A DNA stretch of 64,000 nt from positions 62,001 through 126,000 of the forward strand of contig JABVCE010000016.1 in the NCBI GenBank assembly GCA_014905635.1, given 5' to 3'. Numbering within the stretch: the first letter of the stretch is position 1; the number at the start of each line of letters is the position of its first letter. The notes under the pieces are model-generated. The model was not told where the DNA came from and ran no database searches. It worked only from the letters and a program-made list of their open reading frames with translations. The position numbers and the translations under genes were made by a program. Source of the DNA: Scenedesmus sp. PABB004. Taxonomy: Eukaryota. Shown here in pieces: positions 1-52,856 of this stretch.

Positions 1-32
1 GCCCGCCCGCCCGCCGCGGCCGCCGCGGCCGC

Positions 33-2999
<2,967 letters not shown>

Positions 3000-27274: not shown

Positions 27275-27405
27275 ACCGCAGCAACGCCGCCGGCCCCCGC
27301 CCCTCCCCCCTCCCCGCTCATCGCCCTCATCGCCATCGATCGCCCATCGCCACCCCCTTGCCCGCGCCGAGGCGGCGCGCGCGCGCTCATGAGTACCTCT
27401 ACTGA

Positions 27406-27549
27406 TCAATAGAGGTACTCAGGCACCGCAAACGCGAGCCGCGGGCAGCGCACGCTCAGCGGTGCGCCGCTGCGCTGCATCATGCTGCCCGGCACAAACG
27501 CAAAGCACCCCTCCATGCCCCCGACCACGGCGCCCACGAGCGCGCGCGG

Positions 27550-27593
<44 letters not shown>

Positions 27594-30500
27594 GCTCGCG
27601 CCCGCCGGGCTCGCGCCCGCCGGCGAGGGAGAAGGGCGTGCAGGAGGCATAGGCAAAGTCGCCGCCGCCCGGGACGAGCAGCGGGTACAGCCCCACCACG
27701 CCCTCGCCGCTCACGCTGTCGGCGAGGCCGCCGCGCGCGTCCAGGATGCGCCACGCGCGCGTCTCCAGCTGGCAGGAACTGAGCCCCGCGCCCGCGGCGC
27801 CGGCGGCGGCGCCGTCGCTGCCGTCGCCGTCTGGCGCGGCCGCGGCCCACGCGGGCGCCGCCGCGAGCGGCTCCGGCACGCATGCCGCCCCCGCCGAGGC
27901 GTCGCAGGGCCCGATGACCAGCGCCTGGTGCTGCAGCCCGGCGGCGCCGGGCGCGCAGCGCGCGCCCGCGCCGCCGCCGCCGGCGGCCGCCAGCCACGCG
28001 TCGCGCTCGCGCGCGAGGCGCTCCCGCGCCGCCGCCTCCTGCGCCGGCGTGAGCAGCGCGAAGCGCACGGAGTAGGTGAACATCAGCCGCCCCGAGCGCG
28101 ACTCCTGCGGCACGAGCACCGCCGACCAGGTGACCTGCGGCGGCGGCGACGGCCGCGGCGTCGGCAGCGGTGACGGCCGCGGTGCCTGCGACGTGTTGTC
28201 GCGACGCGACGCCACGCGCGCGTGAACAACGCAAAAGCAGGACGCCCGCAATAAAAACCGCGGCAGTCAATGCCCCGACGATCCGCGCTGGCCACCCCGC
28301 GCCGCGCTGGCCTTCAGCGACCCCGCGCGCCCCCTGCCGAGTTCGTGCTTCCTCCCCGCACCCTCCCGACCCCTCCCGGCCCCTCCCCGGCCGTCCCGCG
28401 CCGAGTCCGTTTCGGTCGTTGCGCGCGTTCGCGCCGCCCGCCCCCCGCGCGCCGCCATGAAGTCGTCCCTGGTGTTCATCGTCGCGGCGCTGGCGCTGGC
28501 CGCCGTCGCCGGCGCCCAGACCACGCCCGCGATGCCCGCCATCACCGGCACCGTCGCGCCCGCGGCCAACGCCACCGCCATCGCCGCGCCCGCGACGCCC
28601 GCGGAGCCCGCCAAGACCGAGGCGCCCGCCACGAGCGTGGCCACGGCCGCCGTCGCCGCCAAGCCCGCGGGTGAGTCCGGACGACTTGGCCGTTGACGGC
28701 CGAGCAGGCCGCCCGGCGCGCCACGCCGCCCGCGCGCCGCGGCAGCCCCCCCCCCCCCGGCAGCTGCGCGGCGCCGGGAAGCGCCAATGAGCGTGCCCAG
28801 GAGCAAGCAGCAACGATGCCGCGCGGCGCCGCGCCTGCGATCCGCCGCCGCTGCAGAGCCCAAGGCCGCCACCACCCCCAAGGCCCCGGCCAAGAAGAAC
28901 GCGGGCGCCAACAAGAAGTGAGCGCGCGCCGCCGCCGGCCGGCCGCCGCCCGGAGCCGCGGCGGCGAGTGCGTGCGCCGGCTCACCGCCGGCCGCGACCG
29001 CAGGAACGCTGGCGCGAAGAAGGCCGCCAACAAGGCTCAGCCCAAGAAGGCCGCCGCCGACAAGAACGCTGCCATCGCTGCCGTGCCCGCCACCACCGCC
29101 GCGCCGGCGACCCCCGCCATGCCCGCCGCCACCGCCGGCAGCCGCCACCTGCTGGAGGAGCCTGCCGCTGCGGCTGCCGCCGCCCAGCCCGTCGCTGTGG
29201 CTGCCACCGAGGCCAAGCCCGCTGCGCCCAAGGCCGCCGAGGCCAAGCCCGCTGATGCCAAGAAGGTGACCAAGAAGGCTGGCGGCGCCAAGAAGGCTGC
29301 CACCCCCAAGCCCGCCAAGAAGGCCGGCGCCACCCGCACCCTGCTGGAGGAGCCCGCCGCCGCCCAGCCCGCGCCCGCGGCTGCCCAGCCCGCTGCCGCC
29401 GCCCAGCCCGTCGCTGTGGCTGCCACCGAGGCCAAGCCCGCTGCGCCCAAGGCCGCCGAGGCCAAGCCCGCTGATGCCAAGAAGGTGACCAAGAAGGCTG
29501 GCGGCGCCAAGAAGGCTGCCACCCCCAAGCCCGCCAAGAAGGCCGGCGCCACCCGCACCCTGCTGGAGGAGCCCGCCGCCGCCCAGCCAGCGGCCGCCCA
29601 GCCAGCGGCCGCCCAGCCAGCGGCCGCCCAGCCAGCGGCCGCCCAGCCCGCGGCTGCCCAGCCCGCTGCCGCCGCCCAGCCCGTGGCTGTGGCTGCCACC
29701 GAGGCCAAGCCCGCTGCGCCCAAGGCCGCCGAGGCCAAGCCCGCTGATGCCAAGAAGGTGACCAAGAAGGCTGGCGGCGCCAAGAAGGCTGCCACCCCCA
29801 AGCCCGCCAAGAAGGCCGGCGCCACCCGCACCCTGCTGGAGGAGCCCGCAGCCGCCCAGCCCGCGCCCGCGGCTGCCCAGCCCGCTGCCGCCGCCCAGCC
29901 CGTGGCTGTGGCTGCCACCGAGGCCAAGCCCGCTGCGCCCAAGGCCGCCGAGGCCAAGCCCGCTGATGCCAAGAAGGTGACCAAGAAGGCTGGCGGCGCC
30001 AAGAAGGCTGCCACCCCCAAGCCCGCCAAGAAGGCCGGCGCCACCCGCACCCTGCTGGAGGAGCCCGCCGCCGCCCAGCCCGCGCCCGCGGCTGCCCAGC
30101 CCGCTGCCGCCGCCCAGCCCGTGGCTGTGGCTGCCACCGAGGCCAAGCCCGCTGCGCCCAAGGCCGCCGAGGCCAAGCCCGCTGATGCCAAGAAGGTGAC
30201 CAAGAAGGCTGGCGGCGCCAAGAAGGCTGCCACCCCCAAGCCCGCCAAGAAGGCCGGCGCCACCCGCACCCTGCTGGAGGAGCCCGCCGCCGCCCAGCCC
30301 GCGGCCGCCCAGCCCGCGCCCGCTGCCGCCGCCCAGCCCGTGGCTGTGGCTGCCACCGAGGCCAAGCCCGCTGCGCCCAAGGCCGCCGAGGCCAAGCCCG
30401 CTGATGCCAAGAAGGTGACCAAGAAGGCTGGCGGCGCCAAGAAGGCTGCCACCCCCAAGCCCGCCAAGTCCCAGAACCGCAAGGTCGCTGCCGGCACCAA

Positions 30501-32602
30501 GCCCTGAACGGGCCAGCCTGATGGAAGGTTTGATGGAAGGTTTGAGCCTCTCAAACCCAACCCACGCGCGCCCTGCACAAGGGCGCGCCCCTGGTTCCCC
30601 GTGTGTGTGTGCTAGCTAGGCCGGTGTGCGTTTGTGTGTGTGTCGGGCCCATGCGTGGCTGCTGGCAGCAGCACCGTGATTGATTTCTGCCGGTGCATGC
30701 CTTTCGTCCGCACGGTGCGCGGGCGACCAGCAGCCAGCGCGGGAGCGGGCAGCAGGCCGGGCGGCCGGGCCCTGGGCCTAGGCGGGCAGCCGGCGGCGGC
30801 GAGGATTTTCCCCGCCCTCTCCTGCCCCGGCTGGGTGCCGCGTGGCCGCATGCAGCGCTGTGATTGCGCCTGCCACCAGACCGGCCCCCCGACTGCGGTA
30901 ACCCCGAGGAGGCCGCGCCCAACGCCACACGCAGCGACCACCGCAACCGCGCGCAAACAACACGACACGCAAACGGCGGCGCCGCACCTGCACGCCGCGC
31001 GTGATCGCGGTCGCCGCCGCGGGGTAGCAGCGCGGGTAGAGGGAGATTGCGCCCGCCACCTGTCGCAAGCGCAGCGGGCGCTCAGCACACAGCAGGCGCT
31101 GTGCCGGCGCTGGCGACGGCAGCAGCATCGCCAGCGGGCAGCGGGGCGCAGCGGCGACGCGCACCTGCACGCCCGCCTCCTCCAGCGAGCCCCTGGCGTT
31201 GGAGTCGGCCTCGCAGCCGCCGTACCAGCCGGCCGCCAGGCGGCGGGCGTACTCCTCAAACCAGCTGCGGCGGGGGCGACCAGCGGCAGCCGCGTCAGCA
31301 TCAGCAGCCGCGGCGGTGGCGGCGAGCAGGCAGCTCGCGCGCCCGCGCAGCGGGCTCCCTGCGCCCCCCGCCGCGCACCGCACGAGGCCGTCGCACGCGC
31401 CGCCCTCGCCGCCCGGCGGCGCGAGCGGCCAGTCCTGCTGCGGCAGCTTGAGGTAAACGTCGCCGCTCTCGCAGTCCAGCACGCACACCTGCGGCGCGGC
31501 GCGGCGCGGCGTCGCTGCTCGGCAGGGCTCGGCGCAGCGCGCCGCGGCCACGCCGCGAGGGCGCCACACACGGCCGGCGCGCGCACGCGGCCCCGCGCCT
31601 TGTCGTTGGGCCTGAAGGAGCGCGCAAACACGACGTGCCCCGCGGGCAGCAGCGGCTGCCGCGCGCCCATCGGCTGCGGCGGCGGCGGCGGCGGCGGCGT
31701 GGGCGGCGGCGCGGGCGCCGCGCCGCGGCGCCGCCCGGCGCCGCCCCTGGCCTCGCCGGCCGCCCGCGCTGCCGCGGCGTGCCGCGCACCCGTATGCTGC
31801 GGTAGAGCAGCGACTGCTGCACCACGTCGGCGAGCGGCTGCAGCGCGTTGCTCGTGACGTGGTCGTAGAAAACGAGGGTGCCAAACAGCCCCAGCAGCAG
31901 CCGCGGCGGCGGCGCGCCGGCGGGGCCCTGCTGCAGCTGCAGGTCCTGCCCGTTGTGCACGCTGCGGCGGACGCGCGGCGGCGGGCGCGGCGCGCGGCGG
32001 CGCTCGGCGGCGCTCGGCGCCGCCCCGCCGCGCGCGGGCCCAGCGCGTGCCGCGCCGCGCGGCGCCCCACCGGTAGATGCAGCGCAGCGCGAGCGGCAGC
32101 GGGTGCCCGAGCGCGGCCTCGGCCTCGGCGACCTGCGCCGGCGTCGCGCCGGGGTTGAGCGTCTCCAGCACCTGGGGCGCGTGCTCGCGCAGCCACGCTT
32201 TGAGGCCGCCCCACGCCGCCAGCGCCCGCGCGAGCATCGGGCCGGCCACGTCCCCGTACGCGCCGCGCCAGGCCGCGTACGCCGCCCTGCGGCGGCGGCG
32301 GCGGGGTCGCGCGGCGGCGGGTCGCGCGGCGGGCGCGCACGCCCGCACGCGGGCGCGCGCCCGCTCTCGCGCGCCCCGCACCTGAAGCCGGCCGCGGGCG
32401 CGCCGTCGGGGCCCGCCGGCGCGGTCGCGGCAAAGTCGGCGGCAAGGTGGGGCCGCCAGACCGCGTCGTCGCCCGCGCCGGCGCGCCAGAGCGGGTGCAC
32501 GCACGCCGCGCGCGCCGCGTCGGCCGGCGGGAGGCGCGCAAAGATGGCGGCCTGGCAGACCAGCTCCAGGTCGTTGAAGCCCGTCGGCGGGGCCGCGGCC
32601 AT
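27406..32602 (-). CDS. SKIP16: F-box protein SKIP16-like (F-box + SMI1/KNR4-like + ApaG), 8 exons, last intron 28135-30987
   Basis: F-box (FARLPPADAARAACVHPLWR); LNPGAT..AEAALGHPLPLALRCIYRVHNGQ; TAITRGVQ spliced GT-AG to VTWSAVLVPQES..FTYSVRF; ApaG motifs CQLETRAWRI..VSGEGVVGLYPLL..GGMEG. Confidence 0.88.
28457..30507 (+). CDS. Secreted Ala/Pro/Lys-rich repeat polyprotein (about 592 aa), nested antisense in the SKIP16 intron
   Basis: Exons 28457-28670, 28857-28917 and 29004-30507 with GT-AG introns in matching phases. Signal peptide MKSSLVFIVAALALAAVAGA. Six repeats start at R[H/T]LLEE. Confidence 0.88.
29143..30467 (+). repeat. Coding tandem repeat, six units of about 190-273 bp
   Basis: RxLL codons at 29143, 29335, 29554, 29827, 30046 and 30265. 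Units are nearly identical and differ mainly in the number of AAQP(A) sub-repeats. Confidence 0.95.
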
Positions 32603-33114
32603 CGCGCCGGCGCCGCTGCTGCTGCCGCGCGCGCCGCTGGGCCTGGGGCGGGCGCGCCGCGGCGCTGCCGGTTCCAAGGCGGTGATAGCCGTTCGCTGCC
32701 GCCCTGGCCGGGCGCGCGGGGCGAACCGGGGGCGCTGGCGGCGGTGCGCTGCTGCTGCTGCTGCTGCTGCTGCTGCGGCGGCGGCGGCGCGGCGACGCAG
32801 ATGTCAACGGGGCGTCGAGAGTGCAGCGTCTGGCGCTGTGCGCCCCATCACAAGGTGCAACCGGCCGCAGAGCAGCAGCAGGACCCCGCCCTGGCAGCTC
32901 AACCGCTGGCCTTCCCGTCGTAGCGCGGCGTGACGCTGCGTGGGAGCGCCCCTCCGCCACTGCGACCTCGCGCGGCCCGCGCGCGCCGCCCCACGCCCCG
33001 CGCCGGCGGCCATCACAGGCGACTGCTCCGCGCCCGCGCCTGCAAGGCGCCTCGCCGCGCTCGCGCACCGTGCGCACCGGAGGGCCGCGCCGGGATCAGG
33101 CCTTGAGGCCCGCC

Positions 33115-36100
33115 ATGGCGGACAGCTGGGAGGACGCGGCGGAGCCGCCCAAGCCGTTCGTGCCCCGGGCAGCCGCGCCCGCCTTTGTGCCGCGCGCCTC
33201 GGCCCCCGCGTTCGTGCCGGGTCAGGCCATCTACGCCCCCGCGCCGGCGGCGCCGCGGGCGCCGCAGCAGCAGCAGCCGCCGGCGCCTCCGGCAGCGGCG
33301 GCGCCGCCACCGCCGCAGCCGCCGGCGCCCGCGCCCGCGCCGCAGCAGGCGGCGCCGCCGCCGCCGGCGCCGGCGCCGGCCGCGCCGCCCGCAGCCGCGG
33401 GCGCCGCCGACGGCCTCGCGAGCGCGGCGGCAGCGCTGTCGCTGTCCGGCGGCGGCGCCGCCGCCGCCGCGCCGCCGCCGGCCGACGACGAGCCGATGCC
33501 CGACGCGCCGCCGCCGGCGGCGCCGGCAGCCGCGCCGCCGGCGGACGCGGAGGAGCTCGACGCGCCGCCCGTGGACGAGGGGCGCGTGATGGACGCGTAC
33601 CGGCGGCTGCTCGCGGAGGACCCGCGGGACCACCTCAACGTCGTGTTCATCGGCCACGTCGACGCGGGCAAGTCGACGCTCGGGGGGCAGATCCTCTTCC
33701 TCACCGGCGGCGTGGACAAGCGCACGATCGAAAAGTACGAGCGCGAGGCAAAGGACAAGAACCGCGAGTCGTGGTACATGGCCTACATCATGGACACAAA
33801 CGAGGAGGAGCGCGTCAAGGGCATCACCGTCGAGGTGACCGCGCAGTGCCCGCACATTGCGCCGCCCGCGCGAATTGCGCCACCCGCGCGCATCGGCGGC
33901 CGCGCACTGGCTGGCAGCGCGGCGGGGCGGCGGGTGCGGGGCGCGGCGGCGCGGGCGCCGACGCCTGCGCCGCCCCGCCGCCGCCGCCCGACCGTGCCAG
34001 GTCGGGCGCGCCAAGTTTGAGACCGAGCGGCGGCGCTACACCATCCTGGACGCGCCGGGGCACAAGAACTACGTGCCCAACATGATCATGGGCGCGGCGC
34101 AGGCGCGGCGCTGCGGCGCGCGGGGCTGCGGGCGGGGCTGCGGCGCCCGGCGGCGCCGGGGCGAGCACGGGGACGGGGCCGCAGCAGGCGGCCGGCAGCC
34201 GGCCGCGCCGCGCCGCCCGCCCCGTCAACGCCTGTGCTGTGGCGCCGCGCCGCGCCGCGCCGCGCGCAGGCGGACGTCGCGGTGTTGGTGATCAGCAGCC
34301 GCAAGGGCGAGTACGAGACGGGCTTTGAGAAGGGCGGCCAGACGCGGGAGCACGCGCAGCTCGCCAAGACACTGGGCGTGGTCAAGCTGGTGGTCGTGGT
34401 CAACAAGCTCGACGACCACAGCGTCGTCGGCCCCGGCGGCGTGTGGTCGCAGGACCGGTGCGCGGGGCCGGCGCGCGCGCCGCGCAGCGCCCCGGGAGCC
34501 GCCGGCGGCGGCGGCCAGCTGCGGCCGGCAGCGGGCGCTCGGCGCGCCGCCCGCTGGCCGCGCTCCTGAGCCGCCCGCTCCCTCGCCCCCGCCCCCGTCT
34601 CCCTCCCTCGCCACCCTCTCCCCCCTCCCGCCCTGCCGCCCTTGCAGGTACGACGAGATCGTCAAGGGCCTCACGCCATTCCTCAAGACCTGCGGCTACA
34701 ACCCCAAGAAGGACCTCACATTCATACCCATCAGCGCCCTGCACGGCCACAACGTCCGCGACCGCGCGGCGCCCGAGGCGCGTGCTCGCGGGGCGCGCGC
34801 CCGCGCGCGCGCGGCGGCGCGGGTCGCGCGGCGCCGCCGCGCCCTGCACTGCCGCTGACGCGCAGCTGACGTGGCGCCGCGCGCACCGCGCCGCGCGCTG
34901 CCACAGGTGTGCCCCTGGTACGACGGGCCGACGCTGTTCGAGACGCTCGACACCGTGGAGGTGCCCACGCGGTGAGACCCCCGCCGCCGCCGCCGCCCGC
35001 GCCGCACCCCCGTCCCCGTCCCGTCCCCGCCTCGCGCTTCACCCCCGCCCGCGCCGCCCCGCCGCGCCGCCGACGCGCCGCGTCGCATCGCAGCGAGCCG
35101 ACCGCGCCGTTCCGCATGCCGATCGTGGACAAGTACCGCGACATGGGCACCATGGTCATGGGCAAGAGCGAGGCGGGGCTGGTGCAGCTCGGCGACGTGC
35201 TGCAGGCGCGCCTCGCGCCGCGCCGCCGCCGCGCAGCCGCGCCGCCGCCGCTGTGCCGCGCCGCGCGCCGCGCCGCCGCCGTCGTCCCCCACGCGCGCGC
35301 CCCGCGCTGCTCCGGCCCTGCTCCTGCACGCCGAGGCAGGGCGGGGCGAGCGCGAGGGGCGCGTGCGGGGGCGACGTGCTGCGCCCCCGCCTCCCTCTCA
35401 CCCTCCCTCACCTCGCCTCGACTCTCTCCTTGCCCGCCTCCCTCATGCCGCCCCTCGCCCCGTCGCCCCCGCGCCCCGTCGCCGCTCTCGCCGCCCTCGC
35501 CCCGTCGCCCCGTCGCCTGAACCCTGGCCCTGGCCCTAAACCCTGGCCCCAGGTGATGCCCAACAAGCTGCGCGTCAAGGTCGAGGCGATCTTCCGGGAC
35601 GAGCAGGAGGGCTTTGCCGCGCGCGCGGGCGAGAACCTGCGCCTGCGCATCAGCGGCGCGGAGGAGGCGGACGTCAACACCGGCTTCGTGCTCTGCAGGC
35701 GCGCGCCGCGCCCGCCACGGCTGCCGCGGCCCCGCGCCGCGCCCGCGCGCCGCCTGCGCCCGGGCCGCCCGCGCCGCCGCCGCGCCGCGCACGCCCCGCC
35801 CGCGCCGGCGCCGCCCCTGACCCGACCCCGCGCGCCGCCGCCGCCGCGCCGCGCCGCGCCTGGCGCCGCGCAGCGTCAAGAACCCGGTGCCGCTCGTGTC
35901 GACGTTCGAGTGCCAGCTCGTCATCCTGGAGCTGCTGGAGCACAACCCCATCTTTACGGTCGGCTACCGGTGCGCGCCGCCGCGGCGCGGCCGCCCCGCC
36001 CCCCTCCGCCTCCTGCGCGCGCGGAGGCCCCTCTGTCTCCCGCGCGCGCCCGCGCTCACACGCCCACACAACCCGCACCGCACGCGCGCGCGTGCGCACG

Positions 36101-36538: not shown

Positions 36539-37224
36539 GCCCGCCGGCCGGGGTCACTGAGCCTGCGCGGCGCCGGGGCGGCGGCGGAGCCGGGCCTGCC
36601 GCCTGGCCGCCGGGGCGCCGAGGGGCCGGCCGGCCCCCGCGCGGCGGCCGTTTTGTTGCGAGGGCGCCGCGCGGCGGCTCCTGCGGGGCCGGGGAGGGAG
36701 CACGGAGCGGGGGCAGCAGCAGGAGCAGCGCAGGGGCTGGCGCGCTGGCGCGCGCCGGGCGTTTGGCAGCCAGCTGCGCGAGGCGGCGGGCTGGCGCGCG
36801 CGCCGGGTCCTAGCAGGCAGCGGACGCGTTGCGGGACGGGGTGTGGGGGGGGGGATTGGCGGCCGGGGGAGTGAGGGCGGCTGCACGCGCGCATGGGCGG
36901 TCGAGCGAGGGCAACGGTGCCCCGCGCGGAGCGCGCGCGCCGCGCCCGGCGCCGGCGGCGCCGCAAGCAAACGCAGCAGCAGCAGCTGCTGGCGCAGAGA
37001 TGATGGGCAGCGCCTGGATCGGCGCGCCCACGCAGCGAGCCGCTGGGCAGCCGAGCGCCGCGCTTTTGCTGCTGCGCCGCGCAAGGCGGCCTCTCGCCGC
37101 CGCCGCTCGCCGGTCCCGCTGATATCAAACCGCTCCGCACGATCGAACGACGCCTGGTTGTCGTGCCCGCGCGAGCCCACTCGCCACGCCAGCGCATCGC
37201 CCCGACTCCGCGCGCTCCCCGGCC

Positions 37225-39525
37225 ATGCTGCGCGGCCAGGCGTCCACCCGGGCGGCGGCCCGGCCGGCGGCTCGCGGCGCCGCGCTCGGGGCGGCGCCGC
37301 TGCGCTGCCGCCGCGCGGCGGCAGCGGCGGAGCAGCGGCCGCGCGCGGCGGCGGCGCCCGCGGTCGCGCCGGGCGCGCCCGCGCCCGCGCCGCGCCGCTC
37401 CGGAGCCGGCGGCGCCCTGGCGCAGCGCCCGGGCGCGTCGCGGCGGCGCGCGCTGCGCGTGGCTGCGGTCGCGCTGATGCCGAGCGCCAAGGACGACCGG
37501 CTGCCCGTCACCGTCATCACCGGCTTCCTGGGCAGGTGCGGCCCCCAGCTGCCTGGCGCATACGGCCCTGCACCGCCGCGCGCCGCGCTCGCACGCCGGC
37601 AGCGGCGGCCGCCGCCGCTGCGGACCGCCGCTCGCGCGCGGCGCCGCCGACGCGTCGTCCGCGCGCGGCCGCCGCGCGCAGCGGCAAGACGACGCTGCTG
37701 AACCGCATCCTCACCGGCGACCACGGCAAGCGCATCGCGGTCATCGAGAACGAGTTTGGCGAGATCGACATCGACTCGGAGCTCGTCGCGCGCACGGGTG
37801 CGGCGGCGCACGCGGCGGCGGCGGCGGCGCGCGGCAGCCGGCGGGGGTCCCAGCGCCAGCGCGGCGGGGGCGCGCCGCCGCGGCGGCGCTCATGCGCGCG
37901 CGCCGCGCGGCGTGCGCCGCGCAGAGACGCTGGAGGGCACGGGCGACGCTGTGACGATGCTGAACAACGGCTGCCTCTGCTGCACCGTGCGCGAGGATCT
38001 CGTCAAGGTGCGGCGGCGGCGGCCGGGGGCAGCGGCGGCGGTGGCGACAGCAGCGGCAGCAGCGGCAGCAGCGGCGGCGGCGGCGGCGGCGGCGACGGCA
38101 GCAGCAGCGGCAGCGGCGGCGGCGGCGGCGGCAGCCGGGGCGGCGCGGCGCGCCGAGGCCACGGCCAGCAGGGAGCGCCGGCGCACTCCCTCACCGCGCT
38201 GGCCCACCCGCCGCCGCCGCTGCGGCCGCGCGCCTGCATCGCCTGCGCCGCGTGCAGGCGCTGAACAAGCTTTACGAGCGGCGCGAGCAGCTGGACCACA
38301 TCATCATTGAGACCACCGGCCTCGCCAACCCGGGGCCGATCGTGTCGAGCTTCTACATGGACCAGCAGGCGCGCCGCCTGGCTGAACGGCGTGGGCAGCG
38401 GGCGGGCGGGCGGCTGGCTGACGGGGCGCTGGGCTGGTGGGGGCCAGCGTGCAGCGCGCGCGGCGGCGGCGCGGGGCCGCCCCGCCGACGCGCGGCGCCG
38501 CGCCGCCGCCGCCGCCGCCGCCGCTGCCGCCGCCGCCGGCCCGCCGCAGCTGCCGGACCGCGTGCGCCTGGACGGCATCGTGACGGTCGTGGACGCGAAG
38601 CACGTGACCCGGCACCTCGACGCCGCGGAGGCCGACCCCGAGCGCGTGAGCGAGGCGGTGGAGCAGGTCGCGATGGCTGACGTCATTGTGCTCAACAAGG
38701 CAGACCTGGTCGACAAGGCGAGCGCGCAGAGCACCCCGCGCGGCGCGGCGCATGCTGCGCTTGTGGTGTGTTGTGCGCGCGTGACGAGTGCGGTGTGTGC
38801 GCGCGTGTGCGTGCGCGTGTGTGTGTGGCGCACTGGCGGCCGGTGCGCCGCCGCGCGGCGCGCGCCCGCCGCTCGCTGACGCGCCCGCGCCCGCGGCCAT
38901 GGCTGCCCGCAGGACTTCCTGGCGTCGCTGTCGCAGCGGCTGCGCGGCGTCAACGCGCTGGCGCCGATCACCGCGACGTCGCGCGCGGAGGTGCGCCGCG
39001 CGCCGCACGCCCCGGGGCCGGCGGCCCGCCTCGCGCGCCGGCGCCGCGGCCGCCGAGCCCCTGCGTGTTCCCTGCGCGCCGCCGCGGCCAGGTGCCGCTG
39101 GCGAGCCTGCTGGGGCTGCGCGGCTTTGAGCTGGAGGCGGTGGAGGGGGCGCTGGCGGGCATGGACAAGCGCGCGGCGCTCGACCCGGGGCACGTGTGCG
39201 GGCCGGAGTGCGACCACGACCACGACCACGCGCACGACCACGGCCACGCACACGCGCACGATCACGCGCACAGCCACGATCACGACGAGCACAGCCACGA
39301 GCACAGCCACGGGCACGGCGAGGCCTCGGCCAGCGGCGCCGGCCACGACCACGACCACGGGCACGAGCACGGGCACGAGCACGGCGCCGAGTGCGGGCCG
39401 GGCTGCACCAACCCCGACCACGACCACAGCCACGACCACGCGCCGGCCAAGCCGCTGCACAACGACAAGGCGCGCGGCGGGGCTGCGCCCTCCCGCGCCC
39501 CCGCCGCGCGCTCCCACGCGCCCGC

Positions 39526-43514: not shown

Positions 43515-46460
43515 TCAGTGGTCAATGCGTCCCAAACAATGGCCGGGCGAACCGGGCTGAGGCGTCCGCGCCGCGCGGCCGCCCGCTCGTGGGCTGCACG
43601 CTGCGGACGTCAAGCGCTGCCCCGGCCAATCCCGCAGCACGAGCGCCACGCCGCCGTCGCTGCCGGCGCCGACGAGCCCCAGCGCGCGGCAGACGCGCAG
43701 CGCCTCATCAAAGGCCTGCGCACGCTGCTCCGCCGGGCCCGCCACGTCCTCGCACAGCAGCCGCAGGTGCGCCTCGCTCATCCCAGTGGCGCCCTGCTGC
43801 GCCAGCCAGCCCACCAGCGCGCCCGCGGCGTCCCACACGCCCGGCTCGAGCCCAGCCAGCGCGCGCCCGCCGGGCGCCAGGCGCAGCAGCGCGGCGCCGC
43901 CGTCGTCGGCGCCGGGCGCGCCGCCGCCCACGGGCTCGGTCAGCGCCGCGTCAGCAAGGCGGCCCACCAGCGCCTGCAGCGCTGAGAGGCTCATGCTCGC
44001 GCCAGGCGGCGCGTGGGCCTGCTGCTGCAGCACCAGCTTGGCCAGGATCAGGGGGCTGAGCCCGGACGGCCAGTCGCACAGCATGCGCAGCGCGGCACGC
44101 GCCAGCGCAAGCGCCTGGCGCGCCGCCGCCGCCTCTGGCGCCGCTGCCGGCGGCCCGCCCGTGGCGCCCTTCGTGTCAGCTGCCGCTGGCGCCGAGCTCT
44201 CCACCTTGGCCGCGACAGGGGGCGAGCCCCCCTCGCGCGCTGCGCCGCCCGCCGGCAGCTTCGGGCGCGGCACCCGGAATGCCGGGTCTGCGCCGGCGTC
44301 GGGCGCGAGCGCGCCCAGCAGCTGCGGCGGCAGCAGCGCCCGCGCGGACGGCGGCAGCGCCGCGAGGATCGCCGCCGCCCCGCTGGCGGCCAGTCCGGGT
44401 GGTGCGGCGGCCGCAGCCGCTGCGGCGGTGGCCGCGGCAGCGGCGGCCGCGCGAGCGCTCAGCTCCGCCTGCGCCGCGGCCTGCACCTGCGCCGCCGCGT
44501 GCGCGGCCTGCGCCTCTGCCGCCGGCGTCTGCGCCGCCTGCGGCGCAAGCAGCAGCCGCCCAATCTGCTGGTGCCACAGCAGCAGCAGCACGAGCTGCTG
44601 CAGCTGGCTCTCCCACAGCTCAAACAGCTGCGCGTGCGACACGACGGGGTCGTCGTCGGCGCCGCCGAGCGCGGGCTGCGGCGCCTGCTGCGGCGCCTGC
44701 AGCAGGCCGATGGCTGTCTCGAGCTGCATCTGCTGGTGCCGCAGCACCGCCGCCAGGCGGTTGGCCTGCTGCTCCAGCGCCGCCGCGCGCTGCTGCTCCG
44801 GCAGGGAGAGGACCGAGGCCGGCCCGCCGCGCCCGCCGTTGCGCCCCGGCTTGACCACGATGCGGCGCGAGCTCAGGTGCTGCGCGGCCGCGGCGGGCAC
44901 GTGCGCCGCGGCGGCGGCGGCGGGGTCCGCGCCGCCGCCGCCGCCGCCGCGCGGCGGCAGCGGCGCGGCGCCTTTGGGCGTGCTGCACGCCGCCACGGCC
45001 TTGAGCAGCGCGTCCATGCTGCCCTTGGCCGCGGCGGCGGCGGCGGCGCGCTTGTCGCCGCCGTCCGCGGCGCCCGCCGCCGTGCGCACCGGCGGCAGCC
45101 CCGGCGCCTCCTCGCGCGGCGCGGCGCCCTGCTGCTCGTCCAGCGCCGCCTGCACGCGCGCAAGCAGGTCGGCGCCCGCGCCTGTGTTGGCGTCGCCGCC
45201 CGCCGCCGCGACCGCCGCGGCGGCCGCGTCGCTCAGGTGCTTTGTCGCGCCCGCGCCGCCGCCGCTGCGGCTCGCGGCGAGCAGCGAGCCGATGATGTTC
45301 GTCCACATGCCCGGCGGCCCCGCCGCCGCCTCGCGCGCGCCCGCGTCGCCGTGCGGCGCCGCCGCCGCGCCTGGGCTGCTGCGCGCGGGGCGGGGCTTCG
45401 CCGCCGCTGCGCCGTCGTGGTTCAGCGCCAGCAGCGTCTGCGCGAGGTCCTGCAGCCCCGAGCCGCCGGAGCCGCCGGGGCTCGCGGTGCGCTGCAGCTT
45501 GGCCGGCGGTCCGGGCGCGGCGTCCGGCGGCGCGGCGTCGAGCGCGTGCGGCGCGCTGCCCGCTGCGGCGCCGCCGCGCCCGGGCAGCGGCAGGCCCAGC
45601 TTCTGCGCCAGCTGCCCCAAGATCTCCGCCGCCGCGCTGCCCTCCTTGGCGCCCTTGGCGTCCGCCGCGCGGGCGGCGGCGCCCGCGGCGCCCGCAGGCT
45701 GCGGCTTGCCGCTCGCGCCGGGCTTGGGCGCCGCCGGCGGCGCCGCGCCGCCGGGCTGGCCGCCGCCGCCGTCCGCGGCGGCGGGCGCCGGGCGCTTGCT
45801 GCGCTTGTGCTGCTCGCTCGCGGCCAGGAGCGCCAGCAGCGTCTCGCGCTGCTGCTGCACCTGGTGCAGCCGCGCCGCTTTGCTCTCCTCGTCGGGCAGC
45901 GCCGCCGCCTTGACCGCCGCCGCGGCCGCGGCCGCCTCCTTGATGTCAGCCTCGCTGGCGGCGCTCGGCAGGGGCAGCGCGGCGCTGCGCTTGCGGCTGC
46001 CGCCCGCGGCGGCCGCCGCCGCGAGCAGCGCGGCCACCGCCTCTGGTGTCCGCGCCGCGCCGTCGGCCGCGGCGGCGGCGCCGTCGGCGGCGCCGTCCCC
46101 CTCCCGCTTCACGCCCGCAGGCGCGGCCGCCGCGCCGGGCACGCCGGCGCGCGACTGCTCGCCCGCGGGCGGGCTGCCGCGCGCGCCCGGCGCGCCGCCG
46201 CTGGACTGCTCCTCCACGCGGCCGCGCTTGTGCGCCGGCTCCTCGCCGCTCGCGCTGGCCGGCTCCGCGCCGCCGTCGCGGGCCGCCGCGCTGCCGGCGC
46301 TGCCGGCGCCGGCGGCAGCGCCGCTGCCGCCGGCCCGGGCGTCGTGTGCGGCCGCCGCGGGCTTCTCCTCCTCGCCCGCCGCGCGCCGCTTGCGCCCGGC
46401 GCCCGTTGTCGGGCTGGCGTCGCCGCCGCCCTGCCCTGGCGGCTGCGCCTTGACCTGCAT
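43515..46460 (-). CDS. Large low-complexity uncharacterised protein, possibly nuclear
   Basis: Uninterrupted ~980-aa ORF with protein-like composition, NLS-like RKRR/HKRGR, Gln-rich coiled coils and a globular C-terminus. Start codon uncertain. Confidence 0.55.
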   Translation of the reverse strand: MQVKAQPPGQGGGDASPTTGAGRKRRAAGEEEKPAAAAHDARAGGSGAAAGAGSAGSAAARDGGAEPASASGEEPAHKRGRVEEQSSGGAPGARGSPPAGEQSRAGVPGAAAAPAGVKREGDGAADGAAAAADGAARTPEAVAALLAAAAAAGGSRKRSAALPLPSAASEADIKEAAAAAAAVKAAALPDEESKAARLHQVQQQRETLLALLAASEQHKRSKRPAPAAADGGGGQPGGAAPPAAPKPGASGKPQPAGAAGAAARAADAKGAKEGSAAAEILGQLAQKLGLPLPGRGGAAAGSAPHALDAAPPDAAPGPPAKLQRTASPGGSGGSGLQDLAQTLLALNHDGAAAAKPRPARSSPGAAAAPHGDAGAREAAAGPPGMWTNIIGSLLAASRSGGGAGATKHLSDAAAAAVAAAGGDANTGAGADLLARVQAALDEQQGAAPREEAPGLPPVRTAAGAADGGDKRAAAAAAAKGSMDALLKAVAACSTPKGAAPLPPRGGGGGGADPAAAAAAHVPAAAAQHLSSRRIVVKPGRNGGRGGPASVLSLPEQQRAAALEQQANRLAAVLRHQQMQLETAIGLLQAPQQAPQPALGGADDDPVVSHAQLFELWESQLQQLVLLLLWHQQIGRLLLAPQAAQTPAAEAQAAHAAAQVQAAAQAELSARAAAAAAATAAAAAAAAPPGLAASGAAAILAALPPSARALLPPQLLGALAPDAGADPAFRVPRPKLPAGGAAREGGSPPVAAKVESSAPAAADTKGATGGPPAAAPEAAAARQALALARAALRMLCDWPSGLSPLILAKLVLQQQAHAPPGASMSLSALQALVGRLADAALTEPVGGGAPGADDGGAALLRLAPGGRALAGLEPGVWDAAGALVGWLAQQGATGMSEAHLRLLCEDVAGPAEQRAQAFDEALRVCRALGLVGAGSDGGVALVLRDWPGQRLTSAACSPRAGGRAARTPQPGSPGHCLGRIDH

Positions 46461-46678
46461 CGCCCGCCTCACCCGCGCGCGGCCGTCTCGCCCGCCGGGC
46501 GGCCGATCAGCGGCCCGCCACGCGCTGCCGGCCCTGCCCGTGGGCCGTCGCGTCGCCGGCTACCGCTCCGAGCGCTGCACAGCCCGCGGCGCGCCCGGGG
46601 TGCGATGCAGGACCCCCGGATGGGCGAAATGCGGTAGAGGACGAGCGGGCTCTCGCTGCCACCCGGAGGCCGCGCCCG

Positions 46679-46987
46679 CGCGTGAGCCCGCGGCGCGCTC
46701 ACGGCCCGGGCGCGCGCGCGGGGCCCATCGCGCACGGCTGGGGACGCGGGGTCGCCGTGGGCATCGTACTCCGCAGCGCTGCACCCCTGCTGGTCCGTCG
46801 GCGCCGCGGGGCGTCTGCGCGCGCTGCCGCCTGCCCCGCCCCGCAGCGCCGCGGGGGCGGGGCGCACGCGGCCCGCGGGTTCCGGGGCGCCCGTAGCGCT
46901 GCCAGGACTGTCGGCGCGGCGCCTCGCCCGCCAGCGGGCGAGGGGCGGCGCGGGTGCGGCGACGGCGGCAGCGGGGAGCTTGCGCGC
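46679..46987 (+). repeat. Left arm of a ~310-bp inverted repeat
   Basis: Reverse complement of 48955-49279 with few substitutions and small indels. Confidence 0.92.
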
Positions 46988-47101
46988 CTCAGCGCCGTCA
47001 CCGCGCGATCGCCGCCGCCGCCCCGCTGCCGGCTTGGCCGCCGCTCCTGCGCGCCGTGCGCCGTCGGGTGCTCCCACGACGCGCACAAGCAGCAGTCAGT
47101 C

Positions 47102-48729
47102 ATGGGGCGCGTGAACTGGTTCCCCGGCCACATGGCGGCGGCGATGGCGACGCTCAAGCGGCTGCTGCGCGGGCCGGTCGACCTGGTGCTGGAGGTCCGG
47201 GACGCGCGGGTGAGCTGGCGCGCGCGCCCCGGGCCCGCCAGGAGCATGGACGGGCGGTCTGCGGCGCGCGCGGGCGAGCAGCGGCGAGCGGCGGCGGCCG
47301 CCGCGCGCTCGCGCGCAGGTGCCGCTCTCCTCCGCCAACCCCAAGCTGGAGGCGCTGCTGCAGGGCAAGCGGCGCATCGTGGTGCTGAGCAAGGCCGATC
47401 TCGTGCCGCGCGGCGCGGCGCAGGTGCGACGGCCGCGCCGTCGCCGAGCAGCCGGCACAGCCGCGCACCCCGCCGGCGGCGCCCCTCACGCGCGCGCGCC
47501 GGCCGCCGCCGCCGGCCGCAGGCGGCGCTGCGGGCCCTGGAGGCGCAGGGCCTGCGCGCGCTTCCGGCGAGCGCCGCGTCGCCGCCGAGCGTGCGGCGGC
47601 TGCTCGCCGCGGCGTCGGGGTGGCTCGCCGCGGAGCGGTCGGGGTGCGAGCTAAGCATAATGATGGTGGTCGGCCTGCCCAACTCGGGCAAGTCGAGCCT
47701 GATCAACGCGCTCAAGCTCGCCGCGCGCTCGGCCGGTGCGGCGCGTGCGCGCGCGGCGGCGGCGCGCGGCGCGGGGCCGGCGCGGCGCCGACCGCCGCGC
47801 GCGCCGAACGCCGCCGCCGCCGCGCGCCGCCGCCGCCGCGCCGCCGCCGCCGCCGCAGGCGCGCTCGGCGGCGAGCAGGCGCACCAGCGGCGCGCCGCGG
47901 TCGGCGCGGCGCCCGGGCTGACGCGGCAGGTCAGCGGGTTCCAGGTGTGTGCCGCGCCGTCGCCGGTGTACGTGCTCGACACGCCAGGCATCATGCCGCC
48001 CAACGTGCCCGACGACGCGGCCGGCTTCCGGCTGGCGCTCGCGGGTGCGGGCCGGCGCGCGCCGCAGGCCTGCGGCGCGCGCGCGCGCGCGCAGGGGCGC
48101 TCGGCGGCGCCGCGGCCGCCCGCGCACACGACGTGCCCGCCCCGCCGCGCAGGCGCGGTGAGGGACTCGGTCGTCGGCGAGGAGGCGATCGTGCGCCAGC
48201 TGCTCGCCCTGCTCGCCGCGGCGCCGCGGCACCGCGCCGCGCTGCGGGCCGCGCAGGCGCCCGGCTTCCGGCCGCCCGGCCGCGGCCCGCCCGGCGGCGC
48301 GCGGCCCGGCGGCGACCGGCTCTCGCCGCAGCGCGTGCGCGCGATGCGCGCCGCGCTCGCGGATGCGGCCGACGCGCTGGCGGGCGTGGCCGGCCACGGC
48401 GGCGCGGCTGGCGCGGGCGGGGCGTGGCACCCGGGCGTCGACGACGCCTCGTTTGACGCCAGCGACGTGGCGCTCGACCTTCTGCTGAGCCGGCTCGGCG
48501 CGGCCGGCGGGACCAACCCCCAGGTGGAGACCGGCGCCTACATCCGCCTGCTGCAGGTGCGCCGCCAGCGCGTGGGCCGCGGGCCGCGCGCGGGGCCCGC
48601 GGGCGCGGCGCGCCGCGCCGCCGCGGACGCCGAGGCGGACGCCGAGGCCGCCGCCCCGCCGCGCACGTGCAGGCCTTCCGGGCGGGTGAGCTTGGGCGGT
48701 ACATGCTGGACAACCTTGACAACCGCTGA
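47102..48729 (+). CDS. YlqF/RbgA-family circularly permuted GTPase (organellar ribosome biogenesis)
   Basis: MGRVNWFPGHM, LEVRDARVPLSSANP, LSKADL, VGLPNSGKSSLINAL, PGLTR, VLDTPGI; last exon AFRAGELGRYMLD, TGA 48727-48729. Confidence 0.93.
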
Positions 48730-48954
48730 CCGGCCGCGCGGCGGCGGCCAAGACACCCCAAGCCCTCGGCAGCACACCCGGGCGCGGCGCGGCGGCGTGA
48801 GTGGCGGCGAGCGGCGCCGGCCGGCGCCGCCAGCTGCACTGCCCGTGGCACGCCCGGCGCGCGCCGCTCAGCTCCCGCCTGCGGCTGCACCACGCCCGCA
48901 GGCCGCCGCTGGACCGGCGCCCGCCTGCCTGCTGGCGCCACGCACAAGCAGCGC

Positions 48955-49279
48955 GCACGCAAGCTCCCCGCTGCCGCCGTCGCCGCACCCACGCCGCCCC
49001 GCCACGCTGGCGCGGCTGGCGGGCGAGGCGTGGTGCTGCCGCGCCGACAGTCCTGGCAGCGCTACGGGCGCGCCGGAACCCGCGGGCCGTGCGCGCCCCG
49101 CCCCCGTGGCGCTGCGGAGCGGGGCAGGCGGCAGCGCGCGCAGACGCCCCGCGGCGCCGACGGACCAGCAGGGGTGCAGCGCTGCGGAGTACGATGCCCA
49201 CGGCGACCCCGCGTCCCCAGCCGTGCGCGATGGGCCCCGCGCGCGCGCCCGGGCCGTGAGCGCGCCGCGGGCTCACGCG
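48955..49279 (-). repeat. Right arm of the inverted repeat
   Basis: Reverse complement of 46679-46987. Confidence 0.92.
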
Positions 49280-49408
49280 AGGCGACCGGGGCGTGGCGGC
49301 AAGCGCGGCGGCGCGGGATGACCCCGCCTGACGCGTGGCAGCAGGCTGTGGGGCGCGGCGAGCGGGGTCGCGCGTGTTGCAAAGAGCCCCGCGCTTCGGC
49401 GCCGCCGC

Positions 49409-51108
49409 TCAACCGTCGTCGCCCGGCAGCGGCAGCACACAGAGCCAGACCTCCGGCGCGTGCCGGTGAGCCAGGCCCCGCGCGCTGCCCTGCTCGCCAC
49501 CACCGCCGGCCGCGTGCTGCGGCACGGCGTGCACGTGCTCGCCGCCGCGGCCCGGCCCAGAAACAATCAGCGCGCCGAGGCCACGCGCGCCAGGCGCCAG
49601 CTGCGCAGCGGCGCCCTCCAGCGCCGCCCAGGCCACCGCGTGCGCCGCCTCCGCCGGCTTGACGTGCAGCGCAACCACCTGCCCCGCCGCCGCGCCGCGC
49701 GACAGCGCGCCCGCCAGCGCCGCGGCGTCGGCGTGCGCGCCGACGCGCAGCACGCGCAGCGCACCTGCCGCAGCGGCCTGCAGCAGCGCCGCGCTCGCGG
49801 AGCCGCCGGCGGCGGCCTGCAGCAGCGCCGCCTCGGCGGAGCGGTCGCGCGTGCCGCCGCTGCTGGCGCCCGCGCCGCCGGGCGCGTCGTCGTCCAGCGT
49901 CGCGGACCACAGGCTGGCCGGCAGCGCGCCGTCGCCGCCGCTGGCAAGCGCCGCGCCCGCGATCGCTGCCGGTGCCGCCTGGCCTGCCGCCGCGACGTGC
50001 TGCTGCCGCTGCGCCGCGAGGCCCTGCAGCAGCTCTGTGGGCACGGACGTCACCCACAGCTGCAGCTCGCCCACGCTGCAGTCGGCCTGGCCGTGCCCGT
50101 GGCCGTTGCGGCGGTGGCCGTCGTGGTGGTGGCGACCGTGGCCGTCGTGGTGGCGCCCGTGGCCCGCATGGCCGCCGGCGTGCGGTGCGGGCGCGCCCGG
50201 CGCTGGCGGCGCCAGCCACCCGCCCGCCGTGCACAGCACCGGCTGCAGCAGCAGCGCCGCGCCGGGCGCCTGCGCCCCCGCGGCCGCGAGCAGCGCCGAC
50301 AGTGCCGCGCCCTGGCTCGGCAGCGCCGACACGAAGCAGCCGCCGTCGTCGCGCACGTGCCGGGTGAGGCGTTCGCGGGCCTTTGCGGCGCCGCCGCCCG
50401 CGCCCAGGCGCAGCTGATAGAAGTGCGGCTCGCCCGCCCCGTCCTGCTGCCCCTGCTGCTGCTTCTGCTGCTGCTGCCCCTGCTGCTGCTGCTCCGCGTC
50501 GTCGCCAGGCCCCGGGCCGCGCGGCCGTGCGCGAGCCGCCGCCGCGGCGGCGGCGCCGCGCGGTCGCGGAAGACGTGCCGCGCCTTCTTCTTGCCGCCGG
50601 CGGCCGCCTCCGCCGCCGCCCGCGCGTCCAGCTGGGCCTGCATGTGCTCGATCGCCTCGTCCATGTGCGGCAGCCGCGCGCGCACCACGTGGCCGCCGCC
50701 GGGGCGGCGCGCGTGCTGCGCGCCCGGCGGCGGCGCGGCGCGCGCGTGGAGCTGCTCCCCTCCCGCGGCCTGGGTTGGAGCACCCCTCAGCCTGCGCCGG
50801 GGACGCGTGGGAGGGAGGCGGCGGCGCGTGGGCGGCAGCGGCGCGTGCTGCCGCGTGCTGTCGCGTGCCGCTGCACGCTGCGCCGGCCACCGCGGCGCGC
50901 CGCCGGCCGCCCGGGCCGGCTACGGCATCACAGAGTTGCGCGTGGGCGCTGCGACGGGCTCGGGCGGGCCGCCGGGGCGTGCCGGAGCGCGGCTGCTGCG
51001 TGCGCCCGGCACCGGCGCCTGCGGGTCCTGGGCAGCGCACCGTGATGGCGCGGAGGGCACCGGCACGGCGTGGAGCGCGCCCGCGAGCACGGCGTGGCGG
51101 CGTAGCAT
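49409..51108 (-). CDS. Uncharacterised protein with two SpoVS/Alba-like repeats; 5' structure uncertain
   Basis: LRVLRVGAHADAAALAGALSRGAAAGQVVALHV..AHAVAWAALEGAAAQLAPG resembles SpoVS, with a weaker upstream copy. Candidate ATG at 51108 (gcaaaATG). Frame break near 50510. Confidence 0.45.
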
Positions 51109-51266
51109 TTTGCAGCCGTTGCCGCCGCAGAGAAGGTGCAGGTGCGTGCGCAACCCGTGCGGGTGGCCGGCCTGGCCTGCCCGGTGTGCGGCGACGGCGC
51201 CGCGGCGGCGGCTGTGCGGCGGGGCGGCGGTGCAGCGCGGCTGGGCCCTGCTGCGCGCTTCACCGC

Positions 51267-52856
51267 TCACTCCGCCCGGCGCGCGCGCTTGCCGCCGCCG
51301 CCGGACCGCAGCCCGGTCATCGCCGCCGCGGCCGCGGCCTCCGCATCGTCGCTCGGGTCGTCGCCCACGTCGGCGGCGCCGCGCCGCGCCGCCGCGCGGC
51401 GGCGGCCCTTGTAGTCCTGGTGGTGCAGGCGCTGCGGGATGCCCATGGCCGGGTGGCGCTCGCCGGCCATGTTGGGGTGGCGCGCGAGCAGCTCGAGCGC
51501 GTGCTCCAGCAGGAGCAGCCGCCCGGGCGCGGCGGCGGCGTCGCGCGCGGCCGGCGCCTGCGCGGCGGCGCGCGCGGCATGGGCGGGGTCGCGGCGCCTC
51601 TGCTGGGCCCCGCGCGCGCCGAGCCGGGGCCCCCGCGCGGCCCGGCCCGGCCCGGCCCGGCCCGGCCCGCACCTCCTGCATCTTCTGCACCAGCCGGGCC
51701 TGCGCCTCCAGCAGCCCGCTCACCGCCCTGTGGGGCCAGCGCCGGATGCCGAGCTCTCGCAGGAGGGCCTTGAAGCGCGTCGACCCCACGCCCAGCGCGC
51801 CCGCGGCGGACGCGTCGGCCGCCGTGCCGCGCGCGCCCTGCGCGGGCACCGCGGTGCGGCAGAACAGCTGCGCGCGCCGGCGGCGGGCGGGCGGGCATGG
51901 GCGCGTCACGCACAGGTCGTGGGTGCAGTGGGGGGTGCCGGCGTCGGCGCCGCGGCGGCCGGCGTGCTGCAGCGCGGCCACGCACCGGCACCAGGTCGGC
52001 GTACGCCACGGTCGCTGGCTGGCCGCCGCCGTCCCGCTCGCCGCCGTCGTCGCTGCCGGGCCCGCTGCCGCCCGCGCTGCCGCCCGGGCGCCGGCGCAGC
52101 ACCACGACCGCCGCGCGGTCGACGGGCTCGCCGAGCGCCCCCTCGGCGCGCAGCGCTGCCTCGATGGGCTGCAGCTGCTGCAGCAGCGCGGCGCTCCGCG
52201 CGGCGCCCGGCAGTAGCGCCGCGAGCGCCGGCACCGCCGCGTCGGCCAGCGCCTGCGCCTGCGCGATGCCCAGCACGGGGCCGCGCGCCTGCTGCTGTTG
52301 CTGCGCCGCCGCCTCCTGCGCGCGCCTCGCCCTCCTGCCGGGCTGGCCGGGCGGCGGCGCTGGAACGTCAGGACCCGGCGCGGCCAGCTGCTGCGCCATG
52401 AGCTGCGCGATGCTGACCACCAGCTGCACGTCGGGCGCCTGCACGTCTGCCAGCTGCTCGCGCGCCGCGGCGCCGCGCGCCCGCCGGGCCGGCGACGCGA
52501 GCTGGCAGGGTCCCATCAGTCTGCTGCGGCCGCCGCGCCTCGCCGGCTGGGGGACCTGCAGGCAACGGGGGGTGTTGCACGGTCAGCAGCACGTCTGGCC
52601 GCGCAGCAGCGATCCGCGGGCAGCACACGCTGCGCTGGTGCCGTGCCGGCGCGCGCTGGCGATCGCCCACGACTACTCGGACTTCAGCTGCGCCGCATCC
52701 ACCGCGTCCTCGCAGTTCTGAAACGGCTCCCGGGCAGCTCGCGCGCACCTGGGTGAGCGCAGGGGCCGCAGGAGGGCGTGCCAGGCAGCAGCGGCGTACG
52801 AGGGCGTCGACAGTGACCCTGAGCAGCTTCGGGCGGTGCGTTGGCGTGTGGAGCAT
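51267..52856 (-). CDS. RWP-RK (RKD-like) transcription factor
   Basis: VAYADLVP..AAGALGVGSTRFKALLRELGIRRWPHRAVSGL, then a helical exon ending QRLHHQDYKGRRR. First exon and start are tentative. Confidence 0.7.

Follow-up and report, generated by a model that had tools for sequence, protein, structure and literature searches.

The repeat units of diatom silaffins are rich in Ser and 15-33 amino acids (aa) long. Silaffin precursors carry the motif RXL, with RRIL or RRNL ending each unit, and Sil1p of Cylindrotheca fusiformis, as described in PMC4557024, combines a signal peptide and a non-repetitive N-terminal region with a strongly basic C-terminal part, in which tandem Lys-rich units are bounded by an R-x-(I/N/L)-L type motif where the precursor is cut. 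The sorghum protein Siliplant1 (Slp1) is described in its preprint (bioRxiv 10.1101/518332) as a secreted, basic and disordered protein with an isoelectric point (pI) of 9.28, in which a region rich in Ala, Ser, Gly and Val lies ahead of seven zwitterionic repeats rich in Pro, Lys and Glu, some of which end in RXL. Here we analyze a predicted gene of comparable layout in the green alga Scenedesmus sp. PABB004. It is located at 28457..30507 on the plus strand of a 64,000-nucleotide (nt) stretch of contig JABVCE010000016.1 (GenBank assembly GCA_014905635.1, positions 62,001 to 126,000 of the forward strand); this whole stretch is referred to as the window, and all positions are given in its coordinates. 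The putative product is best described as a non-homologous newcomer among the secreted low-complexity Lys-rich repeat proteins and polyproteins.

The likeness to Sil1p is one of layout and not of homology, as no sequence similarity was detected. Compared with silaffin units, those of the Scenedesmus protein are longer (64-91 aa) and rich in Ala and Pro, with no Ser in units 1-5, the motif at their boundaries is RTLL or RHLL instead of RRIL or RRNL, and the host is a green alga without evidence of biosilica, unlike the diatom. Homology to Slp1 is likewise lacking: as described in the preprint, Slp1 is rich in His and Tyr, has KPKP-type motifs and carries RXL in only three of its seven repeats (bioRxiv 10.1101/518332), whereas the algal protein has a single His and no Tyr.

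Architecture of the predicted protein

The predicted protein of 592 residues consists of a signal-peptide-like N-terminus, a leader of 118 residues composed of Ala, Pro, Thr and Lys, and six near-identical units of 64, 73, 91, 73, 73 and 80 aa. The first unit starts with RHLL at residue 139 and the remaining five start with RTLL at residues 203, 276, 367, 440 and 513. Within each unit RxLL leads into an EEP head; next come a spacer of the (AAQP)n type, which varies in length from 48 to 129 nt, and a 48-aa core that closes with a Lys-rich tail. At the DNA level the six copies of the 144-nt core differ only at one synonymous GTC/GTG site and in unit 6, the end of which has diverged. Tandem Repeats Finder reported a period of 219 nt with 98-99% matches and scores of 836-1799, and the tandem repeat is far beyond chance. 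All units are encoded on the plus strand, unit 1 at 29143..29334, unit 2 at 29335..29553, unit 3 at 29554..29826, unit 4 at 29827..30045, unit 5 at 30046..30264 and unit 6 at 30265..30504. The greater length of unit 3 lies in its spacer, where a 15-nt microsatellite has expanded to 6.9 copies (29570-29673), and the tail of unit 6 diverges into a unique polar C-terminus without a hydrophobic end of the glycosylphosphatidylinositol (GPI) type.

Ala (39.5%), Lys (14.9%) and Pro (13.0%) make up 67% of the protein, followed by Thr with 7.4%. With a pI of 10.3, it carries a net charge of +61, to which each unit contributes +8 to +10. Cys, Trp and Tyr are absent, the sole Phe lies within the signal peptide, and the only His is that of RHLL. 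Of the 592 residues five are Ser; none of these falls within units 1-5, and just one belongs to a unit at all, in the unique C-terminal tail with which unit 6 ends. An initial annotation of this DNA had described a signal peptide followed by six near-identical units with an acidic head and a basic tail, and a mature part devoid of Cys and aromatic residues, and the protein agrees with that description throughout.

For the signal peptide this agreement rests on a hydropathy heuristic. A single Lys precedes a hydrophobic stretch of 15 residues, and the sequence A-G-A stands before Gln21, placing small residues at positions -3 and -1 of the putative cleavage site. The maximum of an 11-residue Kyte-Doolittle average is 3.12 at residues 5-15, compared with at most 1.55 anywhere after residue 25. 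The N-terminus is neither Arg-rich nor amphipathic, and so does not have the features of a chloroplast-targeting sequence. In an AlphaFold2 single-sequence model the mean predicted local distance difference test score (pLDDT) was 38.6 and the predicted template modelling score 0.17, with no helix or strand; the low pLDDT and the lack of secondary structure suggest that the chain is disordered. A histone H1-like DNA-binding protein rich in Ala, Lys and Pro was also considered as the identity of the product, but is contradicted by the signal-peptide-like N-terminus and by the absence of a globular linker-histone domain in the Pfam search.

A basic disordered chain with regular repeats is also the design of the pyrenoid Rubisco linkers EPYC1 and CsLinker, and the protein might be their functional analogue, with RxLLEE binding Rubisco at regular spacing. 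The high pI fits such a role, the near-identical repeats recur every 64-91 residues, inside the window of 20-120 residues used by FLIPPer as described in PMC11570498, and RxLLEE mixes hydrophobic and charged residues as linker helices do. Nevertheless, we consider this reading highly improbable. The N-terminus resembles a signal peptide and not an algal chloroplast transit peptide, and in a host that is apparently a green alga with a primary plastid a signal peptide would direct the protein to the endoplasmic reticulum (ER). Moreover, no helix of at least four residues was predicted, in contrast to the repeated helices that FLIPPer looks for according to the same description (PMC11570498), although a single-sequence AlphaFold model is weak evidence on this point.

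The composition invites a second comparison, with the Lys-rich classical arabinogalactan proteins (AGPs) of seed plants, which share with the algal protein a signal peptide, more than 50% Pro, Ala, Ser and Thr, AP/PA/TP glycomodules, non-contiguous Pro and Lys-rich subdomains. The product could accordingly be a structural glycoprotein of the wall that escapes cleavage, comparable in a green alga to Lys-rich AGPs or other hydroxyproline-rich glycoproteins; it would stay intact, be hydroxylated and glycosylated at its non-contiguous Pro residues and contain RxLL as a mere part of the repeat. Pro, Ala, Ser and Thr amount to 61.4% of the 572 mature residues, above the limit of >50% given in PMC5266747, a source that also lists Lys-rich AGPs as a known subclass. 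With regard to the glycomodules named there, 80 AP, PA, TP or PT dipeptides occur in the 572 residues and contiguous PP is absent (PMC5266747). The resulting glycomodule index of 0.14 is, however, borderline, and every unit contains Pro-free gaps, six of 18 residues and one of 22, that exceed the 'no more than 11' of the definition in PMC5266747. Where these AGPs have a single short Lys-rich block, the algal protein has six long ones, and it contains no SP dipeptide. It also lacks the hydrophobic C-terminal GPI signal, its C-terminus being polar and within the hydropathy limit given above for the chain after residue 25. As far as the account in PMC5266747 goes, Lys-rich classical AGPs first appear in Picea, so that a green-algal host falls outside their range, and the AGP-like proteins of Chlamydomonas use Ser-Pro repeats. 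On balance we judge an intact AGP-like glycoprotein to be unlikely.

Predicted gene structure and coding potential

The protein would be obtained from three predicted exons separated by two GT..AG introns, which together give a spliced coding sequence of 1779 nt without internal stops. Exon 1 (28457..28670) starts with the ATG at 28457 and encodes the signal-peptide-like residues 1-20 (28457-28516) and an Ala/Pro/Thr leader with one NAT sequon. Intron 1 (28671..28856, 186 nt, GTGAGT..CAG) is in phase 1; unspliced read-through past 28670 would meet a stop soon after exon 1, and the frame reopens only at 28675. Exon 2 (28857..28917, 61 nt) is rich in Lys, Ala, Pro and Thr and matches the flanking exons in composition and in its C-ending codons. 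It is followed by intron 2 (28918..29003, 86 nt, GTGAGC..CAG, phase 2) and by exon 3 (29004..30507), which encodes the end of the leader, the six units and the short unique C-terminus and ends with a TGA stop. A single frame results once the two canonical GTGAG..CAG introns are removed, and the exons that it joins share composition and codon style, which argues for a real gene. The span 28457..30507 given by the initial annotation can thus be kept, but only with two introns that it had left unmentioned.

Codon usage sets the predicted gene apart from its neighbours, as had also been pointed out before: codons ending in C or T (GCC and GCT) replace the GCG of the neighbouring exons. Ala is encoded by GCC 146 times, by GCT 52 times, by GCG 35 times and by GCA once, compared with 48 GCG, 33 GCC, 3 GCT and 3 GCA in the Pfam-confirmed exons of neighbouring genes. 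CCC accounts for 70 of 77 Pro codons (10 of 22 in the neighbours) and ACC for 40 of 44 Thr codons (11 of 33). Lys (AAG, 88/88), Leu (CTG, 15/15), Gly (GGC, 23/23), Arg, Gln and Glu each use one codon exclusively. A synonymous-codon score trained on 681 codons from the Pfam-confirmed neighbour exons was highest in the proposed frame, with 0.372 against at most 0.137 in the other five frames; in exon 1, G+C at third codon positions (GC3) is 1.00 and the codon score 0.896. High expression, which the initial annotation read from this codon bias, is no more than a possibility.

The lengths of the units and of their spacers are all multiples of three, that is, they vary by whole codons. At 28-30 kb, AT skew is +0.34 and GC skew -0.15; this strand asymmetry is limited to the gene and fits a transcribed and presumably selected coding strand. 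The region 30508..30700 on the plus strand is the probable 3' untranslated region (UTR), with a GC content of 0.61-0.64 compared with about 0.78 around it; a GC-poorer 3' flank is expected of a UTR and is a further indication of a gene. Upstream, an A-rich element, AATAAAAA, is found at 28240-28260, about 200 nt before the ATG and amid GC-rich DNA, and may be a TATA-like promoter element. TGTAA, the usual chlorophycean poly(A) signal, occurs between 26000 and 34000 once on the plus strand (27151) and never on the minus strand, and no gene in this region has it near its stop.

Position within a probable intron of an F-box/ApaG gene

On the opposite strand the predicted repeat gene is enclosed by an FBXO3/SKIP16-like F-box gene (27406-32700, minus strand). 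It lies wholly within an intron of 2853 nt (28135..30987, minus strand, GT..CAG) that splits the ApaG domain of this host gene; other introns in the window are apparently only a few hundred nt long, as estimated from the spacing of Pfam-matched exon stretches. The last exon of the host gene (27406..28134, minus strand) encodes most of the ApaG domain (Pfam PF04379, E 9e-12). In the PDB it was matched best by F-box only protein 3, through the ApaG domain of that protein (E 3.9e-09), and algal homologues were found at E values of 5.8e-54 to 2.5e-26. No in-frame Met precedes the exon, which begins immediately behind a CAG acceptor. An upstream minus-strand exon ends with CAG at 30988, is followed by a GTGCGG donor, and apparently supplies the first strand of the ApaG domain. 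Further upstream, an F-box-like segment (32453..32548, minus strand) was matched weakly by Pfam PF12937 (E 0.0014; 18.8 bits, below the cutoff of 24.3 bits). A search for longer homologues found no full-length F-box/ApaG protein that would confirm the join, and the short upstream exon piece gave only chance matches against the PDB. Based on the splice sites and on the FBXO3-type ApaG match, we are nonetheless fairly confident that the two exons are joined across 28135-30987.

Long insertions rich in Ala and Gly, among them a stretch of 14 consecutive Gly, are a further feature of the ApaG exon. The only ApaG match named to an organism, a homologue from Tetradesmus obliquus (P0038), opens with Met-Gln right before the residues that start the ApaG exon here, which is the exact exon boundary. 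This start suggests that in T. obliquus the same intron may mark the point at which the gene model was cut short.

Searches for relatives

Relatives of the predicted protein were searched for in several collections. Pfam gave nothing significant (best E 0.31-0.74), and in a word-indexed search of 5.8 billion protein clusters none of 7,995 scored candidates reached E ≤ 0.001. No relative was found in the ESM Atlas, none of 601 pattern matches in JGI metagenome contigs was confirmed, and the window contains no paralogue. A phmmer search of 1.84 billion representatives returned 33 matches at E ≤ 1e-3, the best at 1.5e-10. None reached 1e-30, which indicates that the protein itself is absent from that library. 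The 13 of these 33 matches that were inspected were all unrelated proteins that aligned only via (xxQP)n or (AAKP)n runs to the spacer of unit 3. In four further matches (P0005, P0010, P0023 and P0030), outside the 13 inspected, the best-matching stretch reaches well past the AAQP region, with 25-50% identity. As judged from these searches the gene is a lineage-specific orphan and a member of no known family.

A nested, orphan and repetitive reading frame might also be no functional gene at all. A tandem repeat that looks coding could have expanded within the F-box/ApaG intron, giving a young frame with little or no function on a plus strand that is silent or untranslated. The enclosure of the whole gene in the opposite-strand intron of 2853 nt, the lack of homologues in the collections searched and the 98-99% identity of the repeats, which are hence evolutionarily very recent, all speak for this view. 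Open frames are moreover plentiful in this GC-rich DNA. GC content is 70-84% throughout the window, whose 64 kb hold 281 stop-to-stop open reading frames (ORFs) of at least 150 aa, and over the repeats (28270-30615) each of the three frames on the minus strand runs for 520-780 codons without a stop.

The same circumstances, and several others, weigh against the reading of the locus as a functional secreted-protein gene. Its location in the intron of another gene would be compatible with a young de novo ORF of weak function or none, and long antisense ORFs in DNA of about 78% GC mean that ORF length carries no weight as evidence. GC3 is 0.872 in the proposed frame and in one antisense frame alike and does not discriminate between them, for which reason the synonymous-codon score was used as the frame discriminator. 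The codon counts are in turn inflated by repeat copies that are near-identical at the DNA level and are not independent samples; copies with 98-99% identity also give no information on purifying selection. Without homologues in the collections searched there is no conservation comparison for RxLL, the signal peptide or the frame. TGTAA does not follow the stop codon, and a search for sequencing runs containing the locus found no RNA run and only four DNA metagenome runs (word shares 0.08-0.19). As described below, the residue at P3 of the putative processing motif also departs from that of the best-known sites.

What decides us against a silent or non-functional frame is the combination of a textbook signal peptide, two frame-preserving introns, a uniform and distinct codon style and length variation by whole codons, which are jointly unlikely by chance, together with the strong strand asymmetry limited to the gene. 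We therefore regard a frame of this kind as rather improbable and retain the reading as a gene for a secreted repeat protein.

The RxLL motif and possible processing

The initial annotation had likened RTLL and RHLL to known processing motifs, and this likeness is evident in the forms used by S1P, by plant subtilases and in diatom RXL sites. Autoprocessing sites of S1P include RRLL and RSLK, as reported in PMC3497046, and the pro-regions of plant pectin methylesterases are cut by subtilases at RRLL or RKLL according to PMC13477033. Like the predicted algal protein, these substrates of S1P/SKI-1 and plant subtilases belong to the secretory pathway and contain an R-x-hydrophobic-L tetrapeptide; the general form expected of such substrates is an exposed R-x-hydrophobic-(L/K/F/T). 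In the algal chain, which is predicted to be disordered, this tetrapeptide occurs five times as RTLL and once as RHLL, in each case downstream of the signal peptide. The substrates have Arg, Lys or Ser at P3, Arg and Lys being those of the best-known S1P and plant sites, whereas Thr or His is found here.

If Val, a few Ile and two Met are disregarded, bulky hydrophobic residues are confined in the mature protein to the Leu-Leu pairs of RxLL, and RxLL holds every Leu and six of the seven Arg. This concentration of Leu and Arg would make RxLL the one plausible short linear motif of the chain, and we take it as the best candidate for recognition by an S1P-type or other secretory-pathway subtilase. 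Since the units are near-identical copies, the six occurrences are not independent and amount to about two observations, RTLL and RHLL, the latter with an unrelated upstream flank. Processing of the precursor at RxLL into about six unit peptides of 64-91 aa is accordingly put forward as a possibility only, with the balance leaning against it.

Neighbouring genes, lineage and metagenome contigs

The neighbours of the repeat gene in the window are intron-split eukaryotic genes. A class-III aminotransferase (1-3194, minus strand), split over at least three frames or exons and cut by the window edge, has residues that look like those of glutamate-1-semialdehyde aminomutase. Pfam matches were found to DUF1825 (4053-4535, minus strand), an EF-Tu-family GTPase in three exons (32689-34566, plus strand), CobW in three exons (36561-38876, plus strand), the MMR_HSR1 GTPase family (46454-49318, plus strand), RWP-RK (50923-52515, minus strand) and Bud13 (58897-59664, minus strand). 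No Rfam family was found over the whole window. The Pfam scan covered 273 of the 281 ORFs. Six ORFs overlapping the repeat gene were among those left out, three of which were scanned separately, and ORF 28675-30504 (plus strand) was scanned only from 29005 on; 28545-29036 (minus), 28791-29252 (plus), 59259-62531 (minus) and 60144-63632 (plus) lay outside all Pfam scans. The neighbouring genes together with the T. obliquus match indicate a green alga of the chlorophycean type, which would have a primary plastid.

The four DNA metagenome runs were compared with 27300-29345, a region that includes one repeat unit and was chosen to stay clear of the long repeat. They yielded short contigs of 2-4x coverage that are identical or near-identical to parts of the locus; none spans the compared region and none is informative on splicing. 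The contigs come from freshwater and other metagenomes of three studies, suggesting that the source alga or a close strain is present at low abundance in such samples. In one freshwater metagenome (run X1, record 2), a near-identical strain differs from 28295-28522 by five changes and two gaps, and its two coding changes in the signal peptide, Ser to Thr and Ile to Val, are conservative. These changes were counted toward the reality of the gene.

Discussion

The reading that we favour, and to which we give about even weight, is that the gene encodes a secreted, polycationic and disordered repeat protein of the extracellular matrix or cell wall that would bind anionic polymers electrostatically. 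At present, functional support comes solely from the logic of the sequence. According to this model the product would enter the ER via a cleavable signal peptide and then be exported, and the exported chain would be an intrinsically disordered, strongly polycationic block-repeat protein. Each unit may be seen as a small polyampholyte, in which the hydrophobic and charged RxLL-EEP junction is followed by a Pro/Ala/Gln spacer, a mildly acidic middle and a Lys-rich tail. The spacer of variable length is a candidate for prolyl hydroxylation and O-glycosylation. Outside the cell the protein might bridge or bind anionic polymers of the wall or mucilage, or mineral and polyphosphate anions. If RxLL is used, recognition by an S1P-type subtilase would release about six peptides.

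The initial annotation went further and proposed a silaffin- or prohormone-like polyprotein. The signal peptide and the Lys-rich units bounded by RxLL support this part of the proposal; the units lack Ser, however, and with it the phosphoserine half of silaffin chemistry, a defining feature that yields zwitterionic peptides able to precipitate silica, is missing. A silaffin-like polyprotein is thus possible but unproven. In its most far-reaching form the proposal would be that a freshwater chlorophycean independently evolved a system in the style of silaffin and Siliplant1, in which a young gene, born or expanded in an intron, is translated into a precursor that a Golgi subtilase cuts at RxLL, and about six peptides with acidic heads and polycationic tails organise wall polymers, polyphosphate or silica outside the cell. 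We consider this speculative and improbable. If true, the alga would join diatoms and grasses as a third, convergent case of Lys-rich peptides for mineral or matrix that are delimited by RXL.

Algae commonly have secreted orphan proteins of low complexity, and if the product is merely a structural wall protein, or the ORF is silent, the locus would be ordinary. As an orphan repeat gene nested in an intron, it may offer a clean case for the origin of new secreted proteins. Should it be produced and processed in the way suggested here, the protein would represent an unrelated version, in a green alga, of the design known from diatom silaffin and sorghum Siliplant1, and would provide a simple sequence for work on the condensation of polyanions and minerals.

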